From an archaeon (lineage in GTDB: Archaea; Aenigmatarchaeota; Aenigmatarchaeia; GW2011-AR5): DNA of 29,427 nt. Both the position numbers and the translations under genes were made by a program. Within the stretch, counting starts at the first letter, position 1. Each line of letters starts with the position of its first letter. This document shows positions 11,343-28,205 of this stretch, one piece after another. The stretch lies in NCBI GenBank assembly GCA_035290775.1, contig DATDTP010000015.1, positions 1 through 29,427 on the forward strand. The letters run 5' to 3'. Under the pieces are notes generated by a model that worked only from the letters and a program-made list of their open reading frames with translations, was not told the DNA's origin and did no database searches.

Positions 11343-12098
11343 TTACTTTGCTAATGCAGCGTCTATGGCGGTCTTGAAAGCGCTGTAAGGCTGTGCGCCT
11401 ACCAGCTTGACACCGTTCACAAAGAATGATGGTGTGCCGCTTACGCCATAAGATGATCCATCAGATATGTCTTTCTGGACTTCAGATGCGTATTTGCCTG
11501 AGCTTAGGCATGACTCAAACTGTGCCTTGCTTGCCCCTGCTGCCACTGCATATTCACTGAATTTTGCAGCTGCGGCTGTTGCGTCAAGATTTGACCATGC
11601 TGACTGAGTTTCAAACAGCTTGTCGTGCATCTGCCAGAATTTTCCCTGCTCGTCTGCACACTCTGAAGCTTCTGCCGCTTTCTGTGCATTTGGATGGAAG
11701 CCTAGAGGAAAGTCCCTGAACACTACTTTGACTTTTCCTGTGTCAACATAGTCTTTTCTTATTGACTGAAGAGTCTGCGTGTAGAATCTTTCACAGAACG
11801 GGCACTGGAAGTCTGAGAATTCTATTATTGTAACTTTTGCATTTGCCTGTCCTTCTACAGGGTCGTCGTCAGCAGAAACCTGTATTGCATCAGGTTGTGT
11901 AGGCTGCTGAGGAGCTGCGGGCGTAGGCTGTGCAACAACGTTTCCTGTTGTTGGTATGCCATTTACAGAACTGTTTCCTACGACATATCCGCCTGTAAAA
12001 GAAAATGCTATTGCTACAATAACAAGTGCTGCTAGCAATTTTGTATAGGTTGCTTTTCTTAATGTTATTGTTTCTCCTTTTATTGTCTCTCCGTCCAT
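11343..12098 (-). CDS. dsbA: Membrane-anchored DsbA/thioredoxin-fold oxidoreductase (paralog 1)
   Basis: EFSDFQCPFC active site, FRDFPL, cis-Pro GTPSFFVNG, GAQPY; N-terminal TM helix. Confidence 0.9.
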   Translation of the reverse strand: MDGETIKGETITLRKATYTKLLAALVIVAIAFSFTGGYVVGNSSVNGIPTTGNVVAQPTPAAPQQPTQPDAIQVSADDDPVEGQANAKVTIIEFSDFQCPFCERFYTQTLQSIRKDYVDTGKVKVVFRDFPLGFHPNAQKAAEASECADEQGKFWQMHDKLFETQSAWSNLDATAAAAKFSEYAVAAGASKAQFESCLSSGKYASEVQKDISDGSSYGVSGTPSFFVNGVKLVGAQPYSAFKTAIDAALAK

Positions 12099-14105: not shown

Positions 14106-14882
14106 CTACTTTGCCAATTCAGCATCTATTGTTTGCTTGAAAACGCTGTAAGGCTGTGCGCCTACCAGTTCCACCCCGTTTATGTAAAATGTCGGAGTGC
14201 CACTTACGCCATAAGATGCTCCATCAGCTTCGTCTTTCTGAACATTAGAGGCGTACTTGCCTGTGCTTAGGCATGTGTCGAACTGCGCCTTGTTTGCGCC
14301 TGCTGCCACTGCATATTCGCTGAATTTTGCAGCTGCAGATGTTGCATCAAGGTTTGACCAGTCTGCCTGAGTTTCAAACAGTGTGTCATGCATTTGCCAG
14401 AATTTTCCCTGTTCTTTTGCACATTCTGTTGCTTCTGCCGCCTTCTGAGCGTTCTGATGGAAGCCTAGAGGAAAATGCCTGAAAACAAGCTTGACTTTTC
14501 CTGTGTCAATATAATCTGCTTTTATTGATGGCAATGTCTGCGTGTAGAACCTTTCACAGAACGGGCACTGCATGTCTGAGAATTCTATTATCGTGACTTT
14601 TGCGTTGGCGTCGCCCAGCACAGGCCCGTTGCCTGCTGCTGCCTGGACAACCACCTGCTGTTGCTGTTCAGGTGCCTGATTGTCGTTTGGCTGTTGTGCG
14701 ACAACATTTGCGCCATTTACAGAACTGTTTCCTACGACATATCCGCCTGTAAAAGAGAATGCTATTGCAAGTATCACGAGAGAAGCGAGAAGCATTTTGA
14801 AGGTTGATTTTTTAATTGATACGCTTTCCTGTTTTTTTACGTGCTCTTCTTTTTTCAAATGACTTTGATTTTCTTCTGCCAT
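14106..14882 (-). CDS. dsbA: Membrane-anchored DsbA/thioredoxin-fold oxidoreductase (paralog 2), 258 aa
   Basis: EFSDMQCPFC, GTPTFYING; GGAGG RBS at 14892-14896 supports ATG 14882 (MAEENQ). Confidence 0.9.
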   Translation of the reverse strand: MAEENQSHLKKEEHVKKQESVSIKKSTFKMLLASLVILAIAFSFTGGYVVGNSSVNGANVVAQQPNDNQAPEQQQQVVVQAAAGNGPVLGDANAKVTIIEFSDMQCPFCERFYTQTLPSIKADYIDTGKVKLVFRHFPLGFHQNAQKAAEATECAKEQGKFWQMHDTLFETQADWSNLDATSAAAKFSEYAVAAGANKAQFDTCLSTGKYASNVQKDEADGASYGVSGTPTFYINGVELVGAQPYSVFKQTIDAELAK

Positions 14883-14923
14883 TATACAAAACCTCCGCCT
14901 TTGGCGGCATTCTGCTATAACCA

Positions 14924-15013
14924 TTACATAAATTGTAAACGTTATTATGAAGATGCAAGTATATAAAGTTATTTTATTTCTAGGGCAAAATAATTTGTTA
15001 CATAAATTGTAAA
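14924..15013. promoter_or_regulatory. Two identical 16-bp operators TTACATAAATTGTAAA (14924-14939, 14998-15013) between divergent dsbA and blaI
   Basis: Exact repeat; each is an inverted repeat TTACA-N5-TGTAA containing the TACA/TGTA half-sites known for BlaI/MecI/CopY. Confidence 0.75.
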
Positions 15014-17671: not shown

Positions 17672-17721
17672 GCTAAGTTATTTCTGTATTATTATTAATG
17701 CTTTTTTATTGTTATTTTGAT

Positions 17722-18243
17722 ATGAGCGACAGAATCACAAGACGAGAAGATTTAGAAGCTTATTTAGTTACAAATCTTAAAACATACCAAAAGTACGCAA
17801 GGCGGTTATGTCGCGATTTGTATACTTTCGATGATGCTCATGATGTCATGGGCCAGGCAGTTGTGAATGCGCTTCAGCGTTTTCGTGGCTGTAATGATGA
17901 AGAGCACTTAATATCATGGCTTTACACCGTTGTTAGAAATACTTTCATTGATTTTCACAGACGTGAACATAGACGTACATTTAACAGAGCTGATTTTGAT
18001 TATGGTATGGCAGATATAAATCACTCCATGGATGGACAAAACCAAGAGCTTGAAAAAAGAAGCCAAAAACTTAAAGATGCAATTTTTTTGCTGCCGAACA
18101 CTCTTCGTGACGTAATGATTTTGCGCATTTACGAAGAATTGAGCTACAATGAAATTGCTTCAAGGCTTTCTTTACCTTATCCTACTGTAGTGGGACGTGT
18201 ACAACGTGCAACTGTACGCTTATCAAAGAATATTAAAATATAA
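17722..18243 (+). CDS. ECF (sigma-24-like) sigma-70 factor homolog 1
   Basis: Region 2-like DAHDVMGQAVVNAL..SWLYTVVRNTFIDFHRR; region 4-like LPNTLRDVMILR..LSYNEIASRL; ATG 17722 preferred over 17698. Confidence 0.8.
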   Translation: MSDRITRREDLEAYLVTNLKTYQKYARRLCRDLYTFDDAHDVMGQAVVNALQRFRGCNDEEHLISWLYTVVRNTFIDFHRREHRRTFNRADFDYGMADINHSMDGQNQELEKRSQKLKDAIFLLPNTLRDVMILRIYEELSYNEIASRLSLPYPTVVGRVQRATVRLSKNIKI

Positions 18244-19025: not shown

Positions 19026-19087
19026 CTGTTATTAGTTTAACTCTGCATCTTATATTCTTTTTGTGCATTGAAAATTAGGTTTTGAAA

Positions 19088-19633
19088 ATGGCTACTGCTA
19101 GCGTAAAGGATTTTGAAATATATATGGAAAATAATATGCCTTACTTGAGGCGCATTGCATCAAACGTTACGGGCTACGGGCATGCAATTGAACCAGATGA
19201 TTTGCTTCAGGATGCAATATATAGCGCATTTAAAAGACTTGAAACGTATCGAGGCGGACCAAATGATTTCAAGCCTTGGATATCAAGAATTATTAGAAAT
19301 GCATACATTGACGCATACAGGAGGGCAACAAGAGAAGTCTGCACGCAGCCTATTAAAGAAGCGGCAGAAATACAATGTCGCCGCTTGTCTCCTTTTGACG
19401 TTTTTTCAAAAGAACAAAGTGGTGCAAGAATTATTGCTGTTATTGATGGGCTACCGGATAACCTTGCTGAGGCAGCGAGATTGCGTTTTATTGACGACCG
19501 CAAGTATATAGAAATTGCAGAAACACTGAAAATTCCAGAAGGCACTGTGAAAAGCAGAATTAGCAGGGCAAGAGAGCTTATTCGCAGAAATCTTTTGGAC
19601 AGCGACCCGAATCTGCTTAATTATGATTTTTGA
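19088..19633 (+). CDS. ECF (sigma-24-like) sigma-70 factor homolog 2
   Basis: DDLLQDAIYSAF..FKPWISRIIRNAYIDAYRR and LPDNLAEAARLRF..YIEIAETLKIPEGTVKSRISRARELIR; ATG 19088 after AGGT. Confidence 0.85.
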   Translation: MATASVKDFEIYMENNMPYLRRIASNVTGYGHAIEPDDLLQDAIYSAFKRLETYRGGPNDFKPWISRIIRNAYIDAYRRATREVCTQPIKEAAEIQCRRLSPFDVFSKEQSGARIIAVIDGLPDNLAEAARLRFIDDRKYIEIAETLKIPEGTVKSRISRARELIRRNLLDSDPNLLNYDF

Positions 19634-19734
19634 ATTCTTCCGAAAGCTGCTAGGGTTTATTTCACTATGAATTCGAAAAGACATGCTCAAGAAATCTGCG
19701 GTTTCAACCGTAGATTATAGCGGGTATTTCATAT
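19627..19734 (+). repeat. Dispersed hairpin element family alpha, copy 1
   Basis: TTTTTGAATTC-N31-GAATTCGAAAAGACAT..AAGAAA-[TCTGCGGT TTCA ACCGTAGA]-..ATTTCATAT; homologous to 23050-23158 and 27901-28080. Confidence 0.8.
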
Positions 19735-19765
19735 TTAAATTTCTGATTCTTAGATGATGTTTATG

Positions 19766-19874
19766 GCTAGCCTTTTTCTTATAAAGAAAAATGTTACCGT
19801 CTGCAGAAAGCAAAGCTTTCTGAGAATTTGTAAAGGTAAGTTCTATAAAACTTTACAAAGTATCCAAAAAGAAA
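19766..19874 (+). repeat. Dispersed hairpin element family beta, copy 1
   Basis: GCTAGC-hairpin-GTTACCGT-[AGAAAGC AAA GCTTTCT; TTTGTAAAG..CTTTACAAA]-GTATCCAAAAAGAAA. Confidence 0.7.
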
Positions 19875-19887
19875 TGGTGTAAATATT

Positions 19888-20847
19888 ATGAGCGAGTATG
19901 ATGTTATTGTAATCGGCGGGGGAGCTGCGGGCCTTACTGCGGCTATTTTTACAAGCAGGAGAAAACTCAGGACATTGGTTGTAAGCATAGACACAGGCGG
20001 GCAGACAAACTTGACAAACAAGATATCAAATTACCCCGGATTTCTGGAAAAAAGCGGGCCAAAGCTCATGGGTATTTTTAAAAAACAGGCAGAGTCTACA
20101 GGAACTGAATTTGTCAACGGAAGATTTTCTAAAATGGAGAAAAAAGGCGAAGGCAAGGACCAGAAGTTTACTGTTTACCTTACAAACGGCGAATCATATT
20201 CTGGCAGGGTTCTTATTCTTGCCTATGGAAAGGTGCCGCGTGCTTTGGGCATACCTGGCGAGGAAAAGTTTGTTGGCAGGGGCGTGTCTGTAAGCGCTGT
20301 GCAAGACGCGCCGCTTTATGCCGGCAAGTGCGTAGCTGTAATAGGCGGGGGCAATTCTGCGCTAGAGTCTGCAGAGCTTCTGGCAGAGCTTTGCTCAAAG
20401 GTTTATCTTGTCCACAGGCGCCAGGAATTCAGGGCAGAGGAGATAACTGTTGAGCGCGTAAGACAGAAGAAAAACGTACAGTTTGTGCTTGATTCTGTGC
20501 CTTTGGAAGTTATTGGCGATGAAAAAGTTGAAAAGCTCGTAATCGAGCATGTTGTCAGCAAAGATAGGGCAGAGCTTGCGGTAGACGGGGTTTTCATAGA
20601 CATAGGCTTTGTGACAGACACTTCTGCTGTGAAAGATTTTGTAAAGACAAACGAGGCAGGCGAAGTGTTTGTAAATGCCTTTTGCGAAACATCGTGCCAG
20701 GGCGTATTTGCTGCAGGCGACATTACAAACATACCTTACAAGCAGACAATCGTATCTGCCGGCAACGGCGCTACTGCAGGCCTTTCTGCTTATTCATATC
20801 TGCAGAAACTGGACGGCAAGTCTGTGGTAAAGATAGACTGGAGCTAG
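19888..20847 (+). CDS. Thioredoxin-reductase-fold FAD/NADPH oxidoreductase lacking CxxC (FNR-like?)
   Basis: GGGAAG FAD motif, GGGNSA and HRRQEFRA NADPH motifs, GVFAAGD; SAVQD in place of CxxCD. Confidence 0.85.
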   Translation: MSEYDVIVIGGGAAGLTAAIFTSRRKLRTLVVSIDTGGQTNLTNKISNYPGFLEKSGPKLMGIFKKQAESTGTEFVNGRFSKMEKKGEGKDQKFTVYLTNGESYSGRVLILAYGKVPRALGIPGEEKFVGRGVSVSAVQDAPLYAGKCVAVIGGGNSALESAELLAELCSKVYLVHRRQEFRAEEITVERVRQKKNVQFVLDSVPLEVIGDEKVEKLVIEHVVSKDRAELAVDGVFIDIGFVTDTSAVKDFVKTNEAGEVFVNAFCETSCQGVFAAGDITNIPYKQTIVSAGNGATAGLSAYSYLQKLDGKSVVKIDWS

Positions 20848-20992
20848 CTTTCTTAAACGATATGACGCCGATGTATGGACGCACGAAGTGCGTCGTTGGC
20901 TCGCGTCGGTTTGTGTAAAGAAAGTTACCGTCTTGAGAGAACAAAGTTCTTTAAGACCCCACAAACCTTTGGTTTGTAAGGTATCAAAGAAA
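20843..20992 (+). repeat. Dispersed hairpin element family beta, copy 2 (with inserted hairpins)
   Basis: GCTAGCTTTCTT..AAGAAAGTTACCGT (20924-20931)..GTATCAAAGAAA; inner GACGCAC GAA GTGCGTC at 20878-20894. Confidence 0.7.
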
Positions 20993-21178
20993 AACTTACA
21001 GTAAAAAGTTTAATTAAAAATCAAAGAATATTATCTTTAGGTGAAACACATAAAATGTCTGCAAAGAAAGCCCTAAGGGAAAGAAAGGAATATTATTTGA
21101 AGTAAAATATCCAGAGAAAAACTATAAAATCCATTGCAAAGAAGCGGCTATAAATAATTGCTAATTTCTATAATTATT

Positions 21179-21388
21179 ATGTCAAGAAATTATACAGTAA
21201 TAGTAGAAAAAGATGAAGAAGGATGGCTTGTTTCTGAAGTAGTGGAACTTCCAGGCTGCCACACACAGGCTAAAACGTTAGACCAACTTATGGAAAGGAC
21301 AAAAGAAGCTATAACAGCATATCTGGAAGGCTATGAAAACGGAGAAACCTTTTTGCAATTTGTTGATGTTAAAAAAATAAAGGTGTAG
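21179..21388 (+). CDS. hicB: HicB-family antitoxin (short form)
   Basis: YTVIVEKDEEGWLVSEVVELPGCHTQAKTLDQLMERTKEAI; start ATG 21179 preferred. Confidence 0.85.
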   Translation: MSRNYTVIVEKDEEGWLVSEVVELPGCHTQAKTLDQLMERTKEAITAYLEGYENGETFLQFVDVKKIKV

Positions 21389-21391
21389 TTT

Positions 21392-21619
21392 TTGAAACTC
21401 CCGAAACTTACAGGAAAAGAGCTTGCAAAAATTGTAGTAAAATTTGGATTTGTTTACAGTCATACTATAGGTAGCCACATGGTATACAAGCATGTAGATG
21501 GCAGACGCGTGACTATACCCCATCATTCCGGCGAAGAAATAGGGCCAGGACTGTTAACAAAAATTATAAAGAAAGATCTTGGACTGACAAGAGAAGAGTT
21601 TATGAAATGCATAAATTAA
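21392..21619 (+). CDS. hicA: HicA-family mRNA interferase toxin
   Basis: LTGKELAK..GF..GSHMVYKH..VTIPHH..IGPGLL..I; TTG start after AGGTG RBS. Confidence 0.85.
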   Translation: MKLPKLTGKELAKIVVKFGFVYSHTIGSHMVYKHVDGRRVTIPHHSGEEIGPGLLTKIIKKDLGLTREEFMKCIN

Positions 21620-21656
21620 TAGTAAAGAACATTAATTTTGAGAGCTTTAATGCTAA

Positions 21657-22976
21657 TTATTCCCTGTGAGTTACGCTCGCCATGCAGCGCAGGCCAGCGT
21701 CTTTCCATAACCTGTCGTCTTCAAAACCCGAAACTTGCACCACTTGCTTGTGCTTAGACATTATATCAACGGCTCTGTCGTCTAAAACCCTGCCTATTTT
21801 TGCTATTCTTGGATTTTTGTTGTCGCTTCTTTTTGGCACATATATGGTATCAGACTCCTGCAGGTTGTTGCAATAAGTCATCATGTACAAATATCCGTCC
21901 CTGCTTTCAGTCAGCCAGAATGGGACAGGCACAATATTGTATCCTTGCTCTTCCATTTGTTTTCTTGTTCTCAGGAACCACTGTACGTACGGCTTGTTCA
22001 GCTTTTCATCTTGCGGCGTTACCAAGCGCGCCTTTCTTAATATATTTGCTGCTTCTGACGGGCTTGCAAGCATAATACTATCGTCGCTTATCGGCATTGC
22101 CAAAACATCAAGATGATCATATATGCTCATTTCCCTGGGCACATGCAAATCCCTGTAAGAGTGCCATTTTAAGCCGTCTGTTATTTTGCATAATTCCATG
22201 TCAATTTTATCGGTATCTAGATAGGTCATTGCTTCCTCGTATGCATTCATGCCTATGAAAACAGCCTTTCCGTTTGCCACAATTTGACCACCGACCAGGC
22301 CGTCTAATGCAGGGCCTTCTGCCTGCTTGTAACCGAGTTTAGCCCAAATATCATCTGCCAGCTGACGCCTGTTGTCAAATTTTAACTGGCCTATTACGCC
22401 TGTGCCCATGTATTTTCTTACGGGCGTCAAAATTTTTTCACCATCTTTAGCCAATGGTATAAAAACGTCTGTTGCAAACTCTGATATTAGATAGTCAACT
22501 TTTACCAAATCAACCCTGTCAGCAAACCTTTCTTTGAGCTGCCCGGCAGACCTGCCTTCGTAGACCTTTCTGTTGTTCCACTGGTGATAAAGCGCAGCAA
22601 CTTCAAGAAAATCGCAGAGCAGTTCATATTGCGGACCGGCTGCTAAATTGTGTAATTCTAATAAATGTTTCTGTGATATGAGGGCTTCATAGAATTGCAG
22701 AAGTTCTCTTGTGTTATTTGCTTTTCCTGCAAATTCCTCGTATAATGCAGCTCCGCCGCTTCTTAACAATCGTTTTAACTTTCTATCAAGCATTTCCCTG
22801 ACCTGTTCAGCGCCAGGGCTCTCGAAAATAACAAATCTTGCATATGGCAGCGCATCTATGGCAGATTCAACTGCCGAATGAAGAGGAGGAAAGTAGTTTA
22901 CCATGACTTCCTTTATCCTGCCTCGCGTGACGTCGTGCGGGCGGCCTACGTATTCCATGAATCGACTATAATGCAA
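21657..22976 (-). CDS. Divergent pentein-fold (amidinotransferase/arginine or agmatine deiminase-like) enzyme
   Basis: GGQIVANGKAVFIG, DHLDVLAMP, YCNNL and C-terminal AGLRCMAS match pentein catalytic motifs; N-terminal ~190 aa unrecognised. Confidence 0.65.
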   Translation of the reverse strand: MHYSRFMEYVGRPHDVTRGRIKEVMVNYFPPLHSAVESAIDALPYARFVIFESPGAEQVREMLDRKLKRLLRSGGAALYEEFAGKANNTRELLQFYEALISQKHLLELHNLAAGPQYELLCDFLEVAALYHQWNNRKVYEGRSAGQLKERFADRVDLVKVDYLISEFATDVFIPLAKDGEKILTPVRKYMGTGVIGQLKFDNRRQLADDIWAKLGYKQAEGPALDGLVGGQIVANGKAVFIGMNAYEEAMTYLDTDKIDMELCKITDGLKWHSYRDLHVPREMSIYDHLDVLAMPISDDSIMLASPSEAANILRKARLVTPQDEKLNKPYVQWFLRTRKQMEEQGYNIVPVPFWLTESRDGYLYMMTYCNNLQESDTIYVPKRSDNKNPRIAKIGRVLDDRAVDIMSKHKQVVQVSGFEDDRLWKDAGLRCMASVTHRE

Positions 22977-22985
22977 ATGCTTAAA

Positions 22986-23029
22986 AGAGCCCTTTTTTTT
23001 CTAAAGAAAGAAAACCCTCGGGAAAAGAA
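22986..23029 (+). repeat. Dispersed hairpin element family gamma, copy 1
   Basis: AGAGCCC-T-rich stem-CTAAAG-stem-CCCTCGGGAAAAGAA; matches 25491-25536. Confidence 0.7.
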
Positions 23030-23049
23030 CTATTTGGTTTCACTTTTTA

Positions 23050-23158
23050 TTTTTGAATTCTTCCGAAAACCGCTCGGCTTTATTTACAAACGAATTCGAA
23101 AAGACATCCACAAGAAACCCACAACTTTAGTTGTGGATAATCTGAGGGGATTTCATAT
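23050..23158 (+). repeat. Dispersed hairpin element family alpha, copy 2
   Basis: TTTTTGAATTC-N31-GAATTCGAAAAGACATCCACAAGAAA-[CCCACAAC TTTA GTTGTGGA]-TAATCTGAGGGGATTTCATAT. Confidence 0.85.
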
Positions 23159-23229
23159 TATTTGAAATAAAATCCCTCGGGAACAAAGAACAGAAGGCTT
23201 TATTAAAGCCTTTTTCTCCAAGCTTACTT

Positions 23230-23727
23230 ATGCCCCAAGTAACTAGGAGATTCATGCTTTCGCAGGTGTTTGCTGCCTGTAGCGAAGCGCAAAGAATAAT
23301 GAAGAAAAACGGGATAAAGGCTGTTGGAAGCCCGTTAGAGACACTGGAGGATGTTGGCAAGCGGAACGGCCTTGACAGCAGGAAGATAGACTCTATCGTG
23401 GATGAAATAAACAATATCATTGACAAGGGAACCGACTACAGCAAAATTATAATCAACATTACAGATTCTGGCGCTGAAGTGCTGAAAAACGAATTGAATA
23501 GAAGAAAGAAAAAGTATGTCTCCCTTCGCCTTGCGTCTGACACCGGGATTTATACCTATGACATGGACTTTTCCAACACAAGATCAGACAAGGAGATAGA
23601 AATCAAGTCAAACGGCATATTACTTGCCTTGGACAAGAAGACTTCTATGCTGCTAAGCGGCACGACAATCGATTTTGATCCTGTCCAGGGAGGGTTTGTT
23701 TTTCACAACCCGAACTTTAAGAAATAA
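23230..23727 (+). CDS. DUF1858-like domain fused to a HesB/IscA-like domain, lacking the usual cysteine ligands
   Basis: ETLEDVGKRNGLD (DUF1858-like); INITDSGAE..LDKKTSMLLSGTTIDF..GFVFHNPN (IscA-like), ending before CGCG. Confidence 0.7.
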   Translation: MPQVTRRFMLSQVFAACSEAQRIMKKNGIKAVGSPLETLEDVGKRNGLDSRKIDSIVDEINNIIDKGTDYSKIIINITDSGAEVLKNELNRRKKKYVSLRLASDTGIYTYDMDFSNTRSDKEIEIKSNGILLALDKKTSMLLSGTTIDFDPVQGGFVFHNPNFKK

Positions 23728-23761
23728 ATTTTTCTAAAAGTGTTGCCCAGACAATCTTTAT

Positions 23762-23847
23762 AGCTCACAAGGAAAAAGCATATTTTACTTCCTTGTGAGC
23801 TGTATGTTAACCAAATAAACAATATTCGATTTATTTATTTGGTTAAC
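23762..23847. repeat. Two tandem perfect inverted repeats (13 bp and 14 bp arms, both 14-nt loops)
   Basis: 23762-23774/23789-23801 and 23806-23819/23834-23847. Confidence 0.8.
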
Positions 23848-23898
23848 TATATCTTTATCTACTACCTTGCAGAATTAACTATAACGAGGTGAATTAAA

Positions 23899-23946
23899 AT
23901 GGCTGCAATGGCAAGAGCTGCAAAGAAAAAATCAAAGAGAAAGTAA
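23899..23946 (+). CDS. Putative 15-aa basic peptide MAAMARAAKKKSKRK
   Basis: GAGGTGA RBS at 23886-23892, 6 nt before ATG; long T-tract downstream (~23986-24003). Confidence 0.45.
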   Translation: MAAMARAAKKKSKRK

Positions 23947-24147
23947 TGGCTCATGCTTAATTTTCTGTTAAATCTTCAACACGCAAATATTTTTTTTTAT
24001 TTTAGGTTCATTTCATAGGTTTCTATGAATCTGAAATTTGTAGACCTTTATAACAAATACAAATCTTAATTATAATTGAATTTCAACGTCAAATTTGCTA
24101 TGTGGAAAGAACATAATAAAATGTTCGAAAATTGATGTTCTTGGCTG

Positions 24148-25293
24148 TTAGATTTTTTTATCCAGTGCAAAGAGCAATGGCGTTATGACTATTGTAAGTA
24201 TGATGAAAGCTATCATTATTGTGTATACTTGCTGCGTTATTATGGTCATGCCAAGCGCTATTTGAGCGATAAATATACCGTACTCGCCTCTTGGTATCAT
24301 GCCTATGGCTATCATCCGCTGGTTTTTCCTCGTGAATCCCATAAAGCCGGCGAGGATTCCGGGGCCTATTGCTTTTGTAGCTGCGCCAACCAATAGCACT
24401 ATTAAAATTACGCCTGCAGAAGTCCAGAGAACAGGCAAATCCAGGAATAATGCGCTGTATGCAAAAAATATCGGCACGACAAACCCGTAGCCAAGAGTCC
24501 TTATTTTTGGCATTATGATTTCATTTTTCATTGTCGTATTGCTCATTGCTATGCCTGCAAGAAAAGCCCCTGTTATCCCTGCTATGCCTGCCCTGTCGCT
24601 CAAGAACGTTACGATCATTATTGCTGCCAGGGTTATTGCAAGGAATGTCTGGTCGTCTTTTGCAAGGTGCAGCTTGCGTATCATTGAACTTAGTATCTTG
24701 TTTCCAAATGTTGTAAGCAGGTATATGAATCCGAGCACGGTGAAAAACAAGAGTGCAATTTGTGTAATACCGCCTATCGTATTGCTGAAGTAGCCTATTA
24801 ACAGGGACAATGCAAGGATTGCCGTAACGTCATCTGCAAGCGATGAAACTGCAAATGTCTGGCCGACTTTTGTCTTGTATTCGTTTCTTTCCATGAAAAT
24901 TCGTATTGGTATTACAGTGCTCGTGGATATCATTATTACGCCCATGACAATGCCTATGCTTGTGCTGTTGAACAACATCAGTCCAAGCCCAAAACCGCCC
25001 AAAAATGCAAGAATGCAGCCTGTAATTGAAATGGCAGAACCTGTGTAGACAGCGCTTTTTACTTCTTTGAAGTTTGTTTCAAGCCCAATGAGGAACACAA
25101 GCAGCATGACGCCGATAGTTGAAAATATTTCCAATGACACCGACGGCTCTACTATTTTTAGAACCGGGCCTGCCACAACTCCTGCAAGAATTTCGCCTAC
25201 AACAGGCGATACGCCCATCTTATTTACAATACGGCCAAGAAATTTTGCAAGGAAAAGTATTATACCAAGCTGAAGCAACAGAACAAACGGCAT
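24148..25293 (-). CDS. CPA2-family cation:proton antiporter (NapA/Kef-like, no KTN domain)
   Basis: VVGEILAGVVAGP, LVFLIGLETN, STSTVI, SLADDV, GAFLAG, GMIPRGE. Confidence 0.9.
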   Translation of the reverse strand: MPFVLLLQLGIILFLAKFLGRIVNKMGVSPVVGEILAGVVAGPVLKIVEPSVSLEIFSTIGVMLLVFLIGLETNFKEVKSAVYTGSAISITGCILAFLGGFGLGLMLFNSTSIGIVMGVIMISTSTVIPIRIFMERNEYKTKVGQTFAVSSLADDVTAILALSLLIGYFSNTIGGITQIALLFFTVLGFIYLLTTFGNKILSSMIRKLHLAKDDQTFLAITLAAIMIVTFLSDRAGIAGITGAFLAGIAMSNTTMKNEIIMPKIRTLGYGFVVPIFFAYSALFLDLPVLWTSAGVILIVLLVGAATKAIGPGILAGFMGFTRKNQRMIAIGMIPRGEYGIFIAQIALGMTIITQQVYTIMIAFIILTIVITPLLFALDKKI

Positions 25294-25323
25294 CTAAAGA
25301 CATTGGCATGAAAATAATAAATA

Positions 25324-25367
25324 GCTAGCCTTTCTTTTAGAAAGAAAGGTTACCGTATCCAAAGAAA
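25324..25367 (+). repeat. Dispersed hairpin element family beta, copy 3 (minimal form)
   Basis: GCTAGCCTTTCTTT TAG AAAGAAAGGTTACC GTATCCAAAGAAA. Confidence 0.7.
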
Positions 25368-25432
25368 TCATATTATAAAAGAAGATGCTTAACCTCTCTG
25401 CATATTTATACTAGTATATTGTAATTAAAATC

Positions 25433-25549
25433 ATGGCCAAGCCGAAACAAAAGATAAAGATGGTGTGCAAGGGAAACGTCTGCTACCCAGAGAGCCCTTT
25501 CTTCTCTAAAGAGAAAGAAAGCCCTCGGGGAAAGAAGAATAAAAAATAA
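25433..25549 (+). CDS. Putative 38-aa basic peptide MAKPKQKIKMVCKGNVCYPESPFFSKEKESPRGKKNKK
   Basis: TTTATA at 25405-25410, ~25 nt before ATG (leaderless geometry); 3' half overlaps a gamma repeat. Confidence 0.3.
   Translation: MAKPKQKIKMVCKGNVCYPESPFFSKEKESPRGKKNKK
25491..25536 (+). repeat. Dispersed hairpin element family gamma, copy 2
   Basis: AGAGCCC TTTCTTCTCT AA AGAGAAAGAAAG CCCTCGGGGAAAGAA. Confidence 0.7.
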
Positions 25550-25713
25550 TTGTGAAAAAAGCGCGTGCAAAAAGAAGAGGAAATGAAAACTAATTGTAAA
25601 GAGAAAAATCACTTGCGGAAATCTTTTCTGCGTTTTACAAGCTTAAACTGAAGTTAAATTTTCCAAGCATTGAAATGCTTAATATTAATATCAAATGAAT
25701 GCATATTCTTCTA

Positions 25714-27162
25714 ATGAAACATCTAATGTATATTAATGGCAAATGGGTAAAAGGCCAGAATTATTTTTCATCAATAAATCCTGCTACTGAGCGCATCATA
25801 GCTGAATTTCCTTCTGCTGCATCTGATGACATTAAAAAAGCGGTGAATTCTGCTGAGGCCGCTTACGATGCGTGGAAGGCTACGCCGGCTCCGAAAAGGG
25901 GGCTGATTTTACAGCGAGTAGCCCAATTGCTAAGGGAGAGAAAAGAGGAACTGGCAGTAATAGAGACGCAGGAAATGGGCAAGGCGCTAGCAGAAGCAAG
26001 AGGGGACGTTCAGGAAGCCATAGACGTCTTTGATTACATGGCTGGCGAAGGCCGCAGATTGTTTGGCCATACGACAACTTCTGAGCTTCAGGATAAATTT
26101 GCCATGACTATTCGCATCCCAACTGGCATTTGCAGTTTGATAACGCCCTGGAATTTTCCAATTGCAATTCCTGCATGGAAGATTTCTGCCGCTTTGATTT
26201 GCGGCAATACTGTTGTATTCAAGCCTTCATCTGACACCCCGTTAAGCGCAATGAAGCTTGTTGAGATAATTGAAAAAGCAGGCATCCCGCCAGGCGTTGT
26301 AAATTTTGTTACAGGCTCCGGGAAAGAGCTGGGCAAAGAGCTTGTTTCAAACAAAAAAATAAGGTGCATTTCATTTACAGGGTCAAAAGAAACCGGCGAA
26401 TGGATAACGCAGAATGCAGGGCTTAAAAAAGTCGGGTTAGAGCTTGGCGGAAAAAACGGCATAATAATTATGGATGATGCCAACCTTAGATTGGCGGCAG
26501 AAGGCGTGACATGGGGCGCATTTGGCACAACAGGCCAAAGATGTACTGCTGCTTCGCGTGTCATTGTTCATGCAAAAGTAAAGAACAAATTTGAAAAAAT
26601 GCTTTGTGCAAAAGCAAACGCCCTTCGTTTAGGCGACGGATTAAAAAAGACTACAGACATTGGGCCGCTTGTAAATAAATCTGCACTTGAAAAAACTGTC
26701 GAATATGTTTCAATCGGTAAAAACGAAGGCGCGAAGCTGATATGCGGCGGGAAAAGAACAGGACTGAAAGGATATTTTTTTGAGCCTACAATTTTTACAA
26801 ACGTGCAGCCTGATATGAGAATAGCCCAGGAAGAAATATTTGGACCAATCCTGTCCGTCATTGAAGTTAAATCGCTGGATGAGGCTATTGATGTCATGAA
26901 TAAAATCGAATACGGGCTTAGCTCTTCCATCTATACGCAAGATATAAACAAGGCGATGGCTGCTGTGGAACAAATAGAGGCCGGGATAACTTATGTCAAC
27001 TCTTCAACAATAGGCGCTGAAGTGCACCTGCCTTTTGGCGGCGTAAAACAAACAGGCCATGGAAGGGAAGGCGGCATACTAGGCATAGACGAATTCTCGG
27101 AAATGAAGACAGTGTACATAGATTATTCTGACAGGCTTCAGAAGGCCCAGATAGACAAATGA
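25714..27162 (+). CDS. NAD(P)-dependent aldehyde dehydrogenase
   Basis: ITPWNFP, FTGS, LELGGKN, GQRCTAASR, EEIFGP, PFGGVKQTG; start at 25714 or 25699. Confidence 0.95.
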   Translation: MKHLMYINGKWVKGQNYFSSINPATERIIAEFPSAASDDIKKAVNSAEAAYDAWKATPAPKRGLILQRVAQLLRERKEELAVIETQEMGKALAEARGDVQEAIDVFDYMAGEGRRLFGHTTTSELQDKFAMTIRIPTGICSLITPWNFPIAIPAWKISAALICGNTVVFKPSSDTPLSAMKLVEIIEKAGIPPGVVNFVTGSGKELGKELVSNKKIRCISFTGSKETGEWITQNAGLKKVGLELGGKNGIIIMDDANLRLAAEGVTWGAFGTTGQRCTAASRVIVHAKVKNKFEKMLCAKANALRLGDGLKKTTDIGPLVNKSALEKTVEYVSIGKNEGAKLICGGKRTGLKGYFFEPTIFTNVQPDMRIAQEEIFGPILSVIEVKSLDEAIDVMNKIEYGLSSSIYTQDINKAMAAVEQIEAGITYVNSSTIGAEVHLPFGGVKQTGHGREGGILGIDEFSEMKTVYIDYSDRLQKAQIDK

Positions 27163-27202
27163 AATATTTTGTATTTAAATTCTAAGACTTATACTCATTA
27201 GC

Positions 27203-27568
27203 ATGATGGAAGAAATTGACAAATGGCTAAAATTAGCTAAGGAAGACTATGAAGCAGCAGAATTTAACTTTAAGGGCAAAAAATATAAAGTTGCTGCCTT
27301 TTTATGCCAGCAGGCTGTAGAGAAAGCATTCAAGGCCGTTTTGCTTAAGAAAACAGGTAAAATAAGGAAAATACATGATTTGGTTGAACTGGGGAAAGAC
27401 ATTGAAGTTCCAGACACCATACTCAATGAAGTAAAAGAGCTGACGCTTGCTTACATATACTCAAGATACCCTGATGTAAAAGAAGAATCGGATTTGAAAG
27501 AAAAGGTTTCTTATTTCTTAAAAGTCTCAAAGGAGGCGTTAAAATGGTCAGAAGAAACACTATCGTAG
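27203..27568 (+). CDS. HEPN-domain protein (HEPN-MNT toxin)
   Basis: AKEDYEAA..AAFLCQQAVEKAFKA..IHDL..SRYPD. Confidence 0.9.
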   Translation: MMEEIDKWLKLAKEDYEAAEFNFKGKKYKVAAFLCQQAVEKAFKAVLLKKTGKIRKIHDLVELGKDIEVPDTILNEVKELTLAYIYSRYPDVKEESDLKEKVSYFLKVSKEALKWSEETLS

Positions 27569-27861
27569 GCAAACTCAAATTGTTCAAAAAGAAATTGAAC
27601 AAGGATATTCCAATTGAAACTATGGTCCTTTTTGGCAGCAGAGCCCGAGGCAAGACAGGAAAAGATACTGATGTAGACCTTATTATAGTAAGTTCAAAAT
27701 TCAGGACATTGGATTTTTTCAAAAGAGGCGCAAAAATGTATGACTACTGGGATTTAAGGTACCCTGTTGACTTTCTTTGCTACTCGCCAGAAGAATTCAA
27801 GAAATTGAAAAAAGGCGTTACAATTGTCAAACAGGCGTTGGAAGAAGGCATTGTGATATGA
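27544..27861 (+). CDS. Minimal nucleotidyltransferase (MNT antitoxin)
   Basis: LFGSRARG..DTDVDLIIVS..VDFLCYSPEEF; overlaps the HEPN gene. Confidence 0.9.
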   Translation: MVRRNTIVGKLKLFKKKLNKDIPIETMVLFGSRARGKTGKDTDVDLIIVSSKFRTLDFFKRGAKMYDYWDLRYPVDFLCYSPEEFKKLKKGVTIVKQALEEGIVI

Positions 27862-27900
27862 TAATCTTAGAGTGAAAGACATAAGTTTTTGAACAAATTA

Positions 27901-28080
27901 TTTTTGAATTCTCCCGAAAACCGCTCGGCTTTTCTGCAAAATACTTTATGAAAGTCTTTTGAGAAATTCAGGAAAGCTTTGCTTTCCTCGAATTAGCCAG
28001 CGGATGAGGGCAAGAATTCAAAAAGACATCCACAAGAAACCCACAACTTTAGTTGTGGGTAATCTGAGGGGATTTCATAT
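27901..28080 (+). repeat. Dispersed hairpin element family alpha, copy 3 (71-nt longer inner loop)
   Basis: TTTTTGAATTC-N102-GAATTCAAAAA; CCCACAAC TTTA GTTGTGGG at 28040-28059; inner AGGAAAGC TTT GCTTTCCT; further hairpins follow to ~28200. Confidence 0.85.
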
Positions 28081-28205
28081 GTCTTTCCAACGCCTTCAGA
28101 AAGCATAACTTTCTGAGACATTAGAAAACTTTGTTTTCTCAATGTACCAAGTGACGCATATGCGTACAAAAATTCATGCCGCTATGTATAATTTTGTATA
28201 GATGA

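Follow-up and report, generated by a model that had tools for sequence, protein, structure and literature searches.

The window analysed in this study, the whole 29,427-nt stretch of contig DATDTP010000015.1, belongs to an archaeon of the Aenigmatarchaeota (GW2011-AR5 lineage; assembly GCA_035290775.1), whose genome, designated G000 here, is partial (706 kb, approximately 78% complete). Three copies of a repeat called alpha lie on its + strand where the first-pass annotation had placed them, and the limits of the element proper were refined to 19627-19731, 23050-23155 and 27901-28077, with TTTCA as the last bases, followed by T. The covariance model R1 detected copies 1, 2 and 3 with E = 4.5e-7, 2e-10 and 3.3e-15 (52.2, 69.7 and 94.5 bits), and copies 2 and 3 matched each other by blastn with E = 1e-28, which is far above chance. 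In every window copy, TTTTTGAATTC pairs with GAATTC(G/A)AAAA around loops of 31, 31 and 102 nt, as had been described, and the linker GACAT..AAGAAA followed by a 20-nt hairpin was likewise present in each. This first stem is real but does not stand alone, as it forms the outer stem of a nested structure.

Copy 1 is preceded by the trinucleotide TGA at 19624-19626, outside the element, which the flank logo marks as a putative target or left cleavage site. Its first domain has the outer stem 19627-19637/19669-19679 with a truncated inner hairpin, and its second domain (19680-19731) bears the inner hairpin 2b, TCTGCGGT-TTCA-ACCGTAGA, at 19695-19714, with AGAAA at the guide position directly 5' of it. 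The sigma-factor ORF at 19082-19633 terminates on a TGA within the TTTTTGAATTC of this copy. Copy 2 lies in a divergent intergenic region behind a left flanking TTA (23047-23049), with outer stem 1a at 23050-23060/23092-23102 and domain 2 at 23103-23155, including hairpin 2b at 23118-23137. Both copies represent a 108-nt deletion form, in which the left inner hairpin has lost its 3' half; the 118-nt form found elsewhere (contigs C65 and C36, and genome G001) retains this hairpin intact.

Copy 3 is a long form flanked on the left by TTA (27898-27900). Its outer stem 1a (27901-27915/28008-28024) encloses an intact inner hairpin 1b (27921-27929/27996-28003) with GAAAA and ATGA on its flanks, and its domain 2 (28025-28077) carries hairpin 2b at 28040-28059, which in copies 2 and 3 reads CCCACAAC-TTTA-GTTGTGG(A/G). 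A 61-nt two-hairpin module (TCTGC-hairpin-GAGAAAT-hairpin-GAAT; 27933-27993) interrupts the TTTA loop of hairpin 1b, and the predicted fold of the whole copy has a minimum free energy of -71 kcal/mol (z = -7.9). The cargo loop proposed in the first-pass annotation proved expandable: the left inner hairpin loop bears the same inserted module in two genera, and the second case (locus L009 on contig C73 of G005) has it in the identical place of the loop, its stems covarying. Long forms of about 180 nt are common in genomes G015, G014 and G050. The module of copy 3 also resembles the window's "beta" repeats (D5/D8).

The genome search and the covariance model, applied across 70 genomes of the order, revealed a family far larger than the three copies to which it might have been confined. 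At least 12 alpha loci were found in the 706 kb of G000, and full-length R1 copies of about 120 nt occurred in 38 of the 70 genomes and 19 of the 36 genera, with up to 38 R1-scored copies per genome in genomes of about 0.9 Mb. The unit is about 105-125 nt long, too short for a transposase gene, and a unit length of 119-125 nt together with the architecture is kept in no fewer than five families of the order. The copies are scattered in both orientations and do not form cassette arrays. In G004 they are 86-97% alike, which suggests recent spread, judging from sequence likeness. Copy 2 coincides with an approximately 10-fold depth spike in other metagenomes. No relevant Rfam family was found for alpha at either gathering or permissive thresholds.

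The alignment of 100 distinct copies from more than 25 genomes showed that alpha consists of two tandem domains on one strand, each with an outer stem, an A-rich stretch, an 8-9-bp hairpin with a TTYA loop, (A)TGA and the returning outer stem. The covariation that had been claimed for the terminal hairpin is very strong: 92.9% of cells were paired, where shuffles gave 67.0% (0/500) and slid partners 31-47%, and compensatory changes were observed at 37 of 39 base pairs. Hairpins 1b and 2b were 95-96% paired, with compensatory changes in 15 of their 17 pairs. Since G.U pairs exceeded A.C combinations (151 vs 64) and two positions were mostly U.G, one strand folds. The complete stem difference between window copies, the original reason for suspecting covariation, was confirmed as a difference (CCCACAAC vs TCTGCGGT) but not as stepwise compensation; it is a swap to another type of IS200 right-end hairpin, the 22/24 match for which is given below, and true compensation is seen across genera.

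The flank logo of 95 copies defined the ends of the element. Conservation starts with T100 T85 A100 T100 C86 and ends with A-T-n-T-(C/G)-A100-T97, and the flanks beyond carry approximately 0 bits. Alpha thus stands 3' of a fixed, short, unduplicated T-T-A (85-100% per base), and, as expected of a flank, the middle base of this T-T-A is not constant within one subfamily of near-identical copies. Among these 95 copies no terminal inverted repeats were found, the 5' TTATC... and the ...AT-n-T(C/G)AT 3' not being reverse complements, and a scan for direct repeats of 3-5 nt at all nearby offsets found no target-site duplication above chance. These ends bear on whether alpha could be a classical miniature element with terminal inverted repeats that a DDE transposase moves, or else a site of site-specific recombination, for example an integron attC. 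Its small size, intergenic position, multiple copies and hairpin potential, and the common strand of the three window copies, are what such elements would show; the missing inverted repeats and target duplications, the scattering in both orientations instead of cassette arrays, and the presence of two tandem hairpins rather than one long imperfect attC hairpin make this origin extremely improbable.

Concerning the spacing within the ends, 81 of 91 copies have the TTA 18-19 nt 5' of hairpin 1b, and T-N-A-T lies 13-14 nt 3' of hairpin 2b. At the right end, 87 of 91 copies (44 C/G, 43 G/C) had complementary bases at the N of the N-AAA before hairpin 2b and at that of the terminal T-N-AT, although the covarying base also belongs to stem 2a and takes only two or three states, so that few independent events are represented. 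At the left end, TTA went with the guide AAAA in 76 copies, TCA with GAAA or GAGA in 7 of 7, and TGA with GAAA in three. Autonomous IS copies with a GAAA left guide nevertheless have a TTA flank, and the left guide/target pairing rule of the alpha variants is therefore not general.

The relationship to IS200/IS605 ends that had been proposed for alpha was borne out by autonomous elements. Eight autonomous IS200-type copies with a Y1 (HUH) transposase, all of one TnpA subgroup and from eight related genomes, have ends of the alpha layout. Their left end reads TTA, 13-20 nt (mostly 16-17), outer stem, (G/A)AAA, hairpin, (A)TGAA and outer stem, and their right end (G/A)GAAA, an 8-bp hairpin with a TTYA loop, about 5 nt and G(G)TCAT. 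In layout, in the place of the TTA and in the terminal TCAT they agree with alpha, and R1 matched beside Y1 genes, on the gene strand, with E = 3e-4, 1.4e-3 and 0.01. Hairpin 2b of window copy 1, the sole instance of its type in G000, is identical at 22 of 24 positions to the right-end hairpin of the autonomous IS200 in G047 and G050. Because of this common layout, TTA position and TCAT end, together with the 22/24 match, we consider alpha to be, probably, a palindrome-associated transposable element (PATE), that is, a transposase-less derivative of the IS200 group that would consist only of the fused left and right ends. The interpretation offered at first, a non-autonomous, structure-selected mobile element with IS200/IS605-like hairpins, was in essence right, with three details changed. 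The first is the hairpin swap described above. The second is that TnpB and IscB guide RNAs are not involved, PF07282 being missing from G000 and almost every genome rich in copies. The third is that the sole Y1 transposase assembled in G000 is of a different IS200 subgroup, as set out below.

Several observations on the transposases count against the PATE reading. The G047-type TnpA subgroup was not found in G001 or in G000, the latter being only about 78% complete, and the same type of IS is also present in genomes without alpha (G008, G058 and G034). Many genomes rich in alpha, some of them well assembled, had no detected Y1 gene; examples are G004 (23 copies), G041 (15), G003 (8), G012 (9), G002 (26), G018 (25), G005 (23) and G060 (25). 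Overall, the co-occurrence is loose, with Y1 genes in approximately 18 of 38 alpha-bearing and 6 of 32 alpha-free genomes, a comparison confounded by phylogeny and by the loss of IS copies at contig ends (for example in G015).

The sole Y1 gene assembled in G000 belongs to another IS200 subgroup, and its matching left and right CCACCAGT hairpins lack outer stems and gave no R1 match. A hairpin upstream of tnpA on contig C3 (GGCACAGC-ATA-GCTGTGCC) was considered as an IS left end and rejected, as locus L177 places the true left end further upstream and makes this hairpin internal. A single Y1 gene in G000 and numerous intergenic alpha copies are what a REP/BIME- or REPIN-like system with a domesticated single-copy RAYT (TnpA-REP), rather than an IS200-derived PATE, would present, and REPs are similar to the hairpins of IS200/IS605 and depend on Y1 enzymes (PMC3333891, PMC8266576). 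In that literature, which also includes PMC3116915, the high-copy intergenic hairpins are, like alpha, related to IS200/IS605 ends, often lie between convergent genes and have a Y1/HUH enzyme as presumed mobiliser. In REPINs and BIMEs, one REP with a conserved 5' tetranucleotide is paired in inverted orientation, and a single domesticated RAYT flanked by REPs serves them. The alpha hairpins are instead direct and differ as left and right ends do, and the relatives of alpha are ordinary multi-copy IS200 elements. Moreover, the Y1 gene of G000 has its own left and right hairpins unlike alpha, no Y1 gene was found between flanking alpha copies, and Y1 genes are multi-copy in several genomes, where they break assemblies in an IS-like manner. 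We therefore regard a RAYT system as very unlikely.

Evidence of mobility was sought by the comparison of filled and empty sites in related genomes. The presence of alpha differed at orthologous intergenic sites in two comparisons (contig C49 of G001 vs contig C5 of G000, and G041 vs contig C23 of G042), the junctions not being nucleotide-precise as the sequences are too diverged. A tandem array on contig C82 has units joined as TTTCA|TTTTTGAATTC, which is how the junction of right end to left end in a circle should read, and nested insertions were also seen. For the window loci themselves, G000 and G001 gave no empty sites, these loci being rearranged, with, for example, another gene in place of HEPN/MNT. 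Neither strain-level empty-site joints nor circle junctions were found in four other metagenome runs among the unitig-like contigs, which break at repeats. That none of these comparisons gave a nucleotide-precise empty site or a circle junction counts against the PATE reading. G047 was rejected as an empty-site pair with G045 or G048, as they differ by a 1.58-kb segment, in which a 362-aa ORF accompanies the element, and not by the element alone. On one contig, C4 of G015, 7 copies lay on the + and 4 on the - strand on one side of the GC-skew minimum and 4 and 6, respectively, on the other, without the clear switch that a tie of orientation to replication direction (lagging-strand template) would predict.

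It was also considered whether alpha is primarily an RNA element, such as a 3'-UTR structure, terminator, stabiliser or small non-coding RNA under selection at the RNA level, the likeness to IS200 reflecting origin or convergence. The strand-specific fold and conserved U.G pairs would fit such a role, as would the tandem-gene contexts, in which 24 copies run in the direction of the genes and 8 against it, and the median distance of 25-37 nt after a co-oriented stop codon. The architecture is kept throughout an order of very small genomes, the alpha copies of G000 and G001 are 95-98% identical, compared with 65-78% for genes, and copies persist where no transposase was detected. Finally, the 108-nt form is present at five loci in G000 although it lacks the putative transposase-binding hairpin, which also counts against the PATE reading. 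Against an RNA role, however, G.T wobbles are tolerated in single-stranded DNA hairpins too, anti-oriented and divergent-region copies also occur (17 of 63), and alpha has no Rfam match; none of the runs listed as holding alpha is an RNA run. Tens of near-identical copies, nested insertions and presence or absence at sites are typical of mobile DNA, and the conserved unpaired bases and end geometry fit the IS200 ends that flank transposase genes. A primary RNA function is thus unlikely in our judgement. Among specific candidates, k-turn, C/D and H/ACA guide RNAs were rejected on sequence and structure alone, since their motifs are not conserved across genera and the copies are near-identical; hammerhead-type ribozymes were rejected on the same basis for a wrong motif order and only two stems per domain, and an IS110 bridge RNA because no recombinase adjoins the copies.

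It is also improbable that alpha has been retained in these ultra-small genomes as strand-specific RNA 3'-end modules (terminators or stabilisers) just after stop codons, or is still spreading without a resident Y1 gene through an outside or unrecognised enzyme, which may come from a virus, a plasmid or a host/symbiont partner. If this were true, the long covarying outer stems would be the selected feature. To our knowledge, such long outer stems are not a requirement of IS608-type transposases. Copies accumulate beside the 3' ends of genes, mostly in the orientation of the upstream gene, and there alpha, as a PATE too, may double as a 3' RNA structure.

If alpha is a PATE, its first domain (outer stem, (G)AAAA, 8-9-bp hairpin with a TTTA loop, ATGA, outer stem) would correspond to an IS left end, and its second (outer stem, N-AAA, 8-bp hairpin with a TTYA loop, about 13 nt, terminal T-N-A-T) to an IS right end. 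On the model of IS608, a dimeric Y1 (HUH) transposase acting in trans would bind both inner hairpins on single-stranded DNA, and the A-rich tetranucleotides 5' of the hairpin feet would help to place cleavage 3' of TTA and at the terminal T(C/G)A. The top strand would then be released in circular form and insert again 3' of a further TTA, with no target duplication. We likewise infer TnpA catalysis, trans-mobilisation and present activity in G000.

In IS608 of Helicobacter pylori, the left site falls outside the IS and precedes the hairpin by 19 nt on its 5' side; the right site falls inside the IS, 3' of the hairpin (PMC3201880). Alpha shares with IS608 the subterminal hairpins of both ends on one strand, the absence of a target-site duplication, a left site outside the element approximately 19 nt 5' of the left hairpin, a right site inside it and an A-rich tetranucleotide 5' of each hairpin foot. 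It differs in its target (TTA(T) vs TTAC), in the distance from hairpin to right site (13-14 vs 10 nt), in the outer stems enclosing its hairpins and in having no transposase gene inside. The guide/cleavage pairing of IS608 is only partly borne out in alpha, being good at the right end and inconsistent at the left.

PATEs were described in Haloquadratum walsbyi and other haloarchaea (PMC3119063), and PATE-like elements in Geobacillus stearothermophilus (PMC10055086). Alpha shows all the defining features of the former report. Like alpha, PATEs have no inverted terminal repeats and no target duplication, are too short for a transposase, carry near-terminal palindromes of IS200/IS605 type and a short 5' targeting oligonucleotide, have their palindrome further from the terminus at the 5' end than at the 3' end, and far outnumber the autonomous IS; they also include deletion variants between short repeats and other small repeats inserted in the palindromes. 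Unlike them, alpha occurs in an order of ultra-small DPANN-type archaea, has a long covarying outer stem around each transposase-type hairpin, and conserves its length (119-125 nt) and architecture over at least five families. Its putative parent is a tnpA-only IS200-type element, with no link to TnpB or omega-RNA, whereas PATEs derive from the IS1341/TnpB type.

As a PATE, alpha would belong to a known class of elements, here in a new host group, an order of groundwater DPANN-type archaea with tiny genomes. It explains a conspicuous repeat family in this whole order, in genomes of about 0.9 Mb that are usually regarded as streamlined, and probably accounts for much of the assembly fragmentation there; the R1 covariance model can be used to mask or annotate the elements. 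The hundreds of copies with compensatory changes make up a large natural data set on the end design of archaeal IS200-type elements, and the nested outer stems and the TTA target could guide the biochemistry of Y1 transposases. In addition, near-identical copies in species with approximately 25% gene divergence point to an exchange of mobile DNA among co-resident DPANN populations.

The alpha unit, as read in copies from nine genera, is 119-125 nt long, begins with TTAT, ends with (C/G)AT and consists of two tandem domains. Domain 1 runs through outer stem 1a (10-15 bp), (G)AAAA, hairpin 1b (8-9 bp, TTTA loop), ATGA or similar and the 1a return strand; domain 2 comprises outer stem 2a (7-12 bp), A(A/C)(A/G)AAA, hairpin 2b (8 bp, TTYA loop), about 8 nt, the 2a return strand and AT. 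RNAalifold recovered three of the four stems from nine sequences, with 17 of 25 pairs compensated, and a covariance model, R1, was built with all four. In 101 copies realigned to R1, standard pairs occupied 92.9% of cells, versus 67.0% after shuffling (0/500) and 31-47% with slid partners; both-side changes were found in 37 of 39 pairs, and the covariation score was 0.648 versus 0.180. Being fitted to R1, this alignment is biased toward pairing, but the margin above the controls is still large. Since G.U cells exceed A.C cells (151 vs 64) and stem 1a has two mostly U.G positions, the + strand is the folding strand.

The three copies in the window (19627-19731, 23050-23155 and 27901-28077) were confirmed on the + strand with the parts that the first-pass annotation had described. 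Copies 2 and 3 are 97% identical in domain 2, and copy 1 has stem 1 and the linker in common with them and a different 20-nt hairpin. Copies 1 and 2 are of a 108-nt form in which hairpin 1b is reduced to its 5' half. In copy 3, this hairpin is intact and its loop holds a 61-nt two-hairpin module, which was also found, with covarying stems, at the identical loop position in contig C73 of genome G005.

At least 12 alpha loci were found in the source genome, G000, by blastn and nhmmer. The 108-nt form, whose presumed binding hairpin at the left is half missing, occupies five loci, those outside the window being on C32, C1 and C7. A 118-nt form lies on C65, and on C36 this form carries 181 nt inserted into hairpin 2b's TTTA loop; C14 carries a copy whose domain 1 interior is deleted between two GAAAA repeats, C82 has three 57-nt minimal units in a tandem array, and other loci lie on C34, at two sites on C53 and at the contig end of C23. 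The C82 tandem junction reads TTTCA directly followed by TTTTTGAATTC, the form that would be expected where right and left ends abut.

The sister species, G001, has 13 alpha matches. Across all alpha loci, copies are 95-98% identical between the two genomes while coding DNA is only 65-78% identical, which suggests recent exchange of alpha between co-resident populations. In more distant genera, blast gave module-wise matches only; when read, these kept the alpha architecture with different stem sequences. Of 70 genomes of the order, 38 gave full-length alpha with R1, and between them they span 19 of 36 genera and 5 of 8 families. The matches number more than 400, and a single genome has as many as 38 scored copies. 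Each alpha-bearing genome has several subfamilies; mean identity is 0.65-0.92 within genomes, where some pairs reach 97-100%, and 0.62 between genomes. In genus g17, a separate repeat family of about 90 nt, unrelated to alpha in sequence, is present in dozens of copies that are 85-95% identical (L131:2110-2200 in G041, and numerous loci in both G042 and G047).

Among 95 non-overlapping copies, conservation begins abruptly (T100 T85 A100 T100 C86) and ends at A-T-n-T-(C/G)-A100-T97, with flanks of about 0 bits; no target duplication was found at any offset scanned, and the compared ends are not inverted repeats. Copies adjoin gene ends, in 24 tandem co-oriented, 8 tandem anti-oriented, 22 convergent and 9 divergent contexts, and the median distance from a co-oriented stop codon to alpha is 25-37 nt. 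The stop of several minus-strand G000 genes is the TCA of the terminal ATTTCAT, and that of the sigma-factor ORF at 19082-19633 is the TGA within the TTTTTGAATTC of copy 1. On the 549-kb contig of G015, alpha orientation showed no clear match with GC skew. Given the 3:1 gene co-orientation and the conservation of U.G pairs, alpha may have an additional role at the RNA level; an omega-RNA role is unsupported, since TnpB is absent from G000 and nearly all copy-rich genomes.

A single Y1 (HUH) transposase (TnpA) gene was found in G000. Of the 70 genomes of the order searched, 24 have such genes, and none was detected in many copy-rich ones, some well assembled. In G015, Y1 is present as fragments only, every one at a contig end, and therefore IS copies are evidently lost in assembly. 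When 13 Y1 loci were scanned with unfiltered R1, weak matches adjoined genes, on the gene's strand (E = 3e-4 and 0.01 at the two sides of one gene, 1.4e-3 at another). Both ends were read in these and additional IS copies, from eight genomes, that belong to a single TnpA subgroup. At the left, TTA is followed by 13-20 nt, in most cases 16-17, then by an outer stem (GCGGCAA, for instance), (G/A)AAA, a hairpin, (A)TGAA and the outer stem return; the right end comprises (G/A)GAAA, an 8-bp hairpin with a TTYA loop, about 5 nt and G(G)TCAT. Domains 1 and 2 of alpha have this layout, and TTA and TCAT are shared as well. The guide-plus-hairpin segment of copy 1 is identical to the G047/G050 IS right end at 22 of 24 positions (score 40 vs 16-17 when shuffled, sd 3). 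G000's own IS200, on a 45.8-kb public contig (L177), has left and right hairpins that match each other (CCACCAGT/ACTGGTGG), no outer stems and no R1 match. Neither G000 nor G001 yielded the alpha-like TnpA subgroup, which is also present in genomes without alpha.

In IS608, the left cleavage site lies 19 nt 5' of the hairpin, outside the IS, and the right site 10 nt 3' of the hairpin, inside it; at each end, a 4-nt guide 5' of the hairpin foot pairs with the matching site (PMC3201880). In alpha, 81 of 91 copies have T-N-A at a comparable distance on the 5' side of hairpin 1b (18-19 nt), whereas 13-14 nt separate hairpin 2b from the terminal T-N-A-T on its 3' side. At this right end, N-AAA and T-N-AT have complementary N bases in 87 of 91 copies, although this base also closes stem 2a and has only 2-3 states. 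On the left, AAAA accompanies TTA in 76 copies, and GAAA/GAGA accompanies TCA in 7 of 7. Near-identical copies of the GAAA subfamily have TCA or TGA as the left trinucleotide, a variation that target DNA at the flank would be expected to show. Autonomous IS copies with GAAA guides are flanked by TTA, so the pairing rule does not hold generally at the left end.

On C49 of G001, an alpha copy and a second repeat lie between convergent genes, and in G000 about 10 nt separate the orthologues of these genes. The syntenic intergenic region of G042 is without a copy found in G041; as these genomes are too diverged, neither junction is nucleotide-precise. A 1.58-kb segment of G047 (L072:1308-2890, on C51), comprising a 362-aa ORF of no obvious family and an alpha copy, does not occur in G045 and G048, which are collinear with G047 in other respects; the junctions of the segment run from ...TAAATT to TATCATG... 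and from ...CACAAGTT to CTTCAGG....

Other repeats were also observed. The beta family, of the form (C)GTCTGC-hairpin-GAGA, occurs at 19787-19849, about 55 nt past copy 1, at 20918-20956, and at 28080-28142, 2 nt past copy 3. The layout of the 61-nt module within copy 3 is likewise TCTGC-hairpin-GAGA, and beta-like modules thus appear to be inserted into loops of alpha hairpins. The 181-nt element (G000:C36:2295-2475) has inverted termini (CAGTAC...GTACTG-like) and TTTA at each side, and a similar 3' junction occurs on C87 of G001 (L044). The intergenic repeat AAAGAAA(G/A)CCCT(A/C)(A/G)GGG(A)AAAGAA (21063-21085, 23007-23029 and 25514-25536), a small CCC...GGG palindrome in A-rich surroundings, is a further multi-copy motif, because Logan contigs join its places.

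The host is an archaeon, since TBP and archaeal SRP RNA were found. Its partial assembly, from groundwater and soil metagenomes, has 82 contigs and 706 kb (40% G+C, about 78% complete), the window being the entire C15, and a genome size estimated at about 0.9 Mb agrees with a DPANN-type lineage. In this otherwise archaeal genome, the ORFs at 17698-18243 and 19082-19633 match bacterial, ECF-like sigma-70 regions 2 and 4 (Pfam E = 1e-8 to 1e-14); the second is seemingly missing from the syntenic contig of G001. A HEPN and nucleotidyltransferase (MNT) gene pair (27203-27861) lies immediately 5' of copy 3, where G001 has another gene, and a paralogous minus-strand pair (11343-12098 and 14106-14924; repeats D1 and D4) is 77-83% identical in DNA over about 430 nt.

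The reading of alpha as a non-autonomous, structure-selected mobile element with IS200/IS605-like hairpins and an expandable loop is supported, with corrections. Alpha has every defining feature set for the palindrome-associated transposable elements (PATEs) of Haloquadratum, namely no inverted terminal repeats, no target duplication, near-terminal palindromes, no room for a transposase, IS200/IS605-type ends and a palindrome farther from the 5' than from the 3' end (PMC3119063). PATE palindromes also receive small-repeat insertions (PMC3119063), comparable with the 181-nt insertion on C36 and the 61-nt module of copy 3; the former is reminiscent of the SMR-A repeats, whose targets in Haloquadratum are PATE palindromes. 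Elements resembling PATEs have been reported from Geobacillus as well (PMC10055086). Alpha is therefore an added member of an already known kind of element, an order-wide PATE family from an IS200-group element in DPANN-type archaea.
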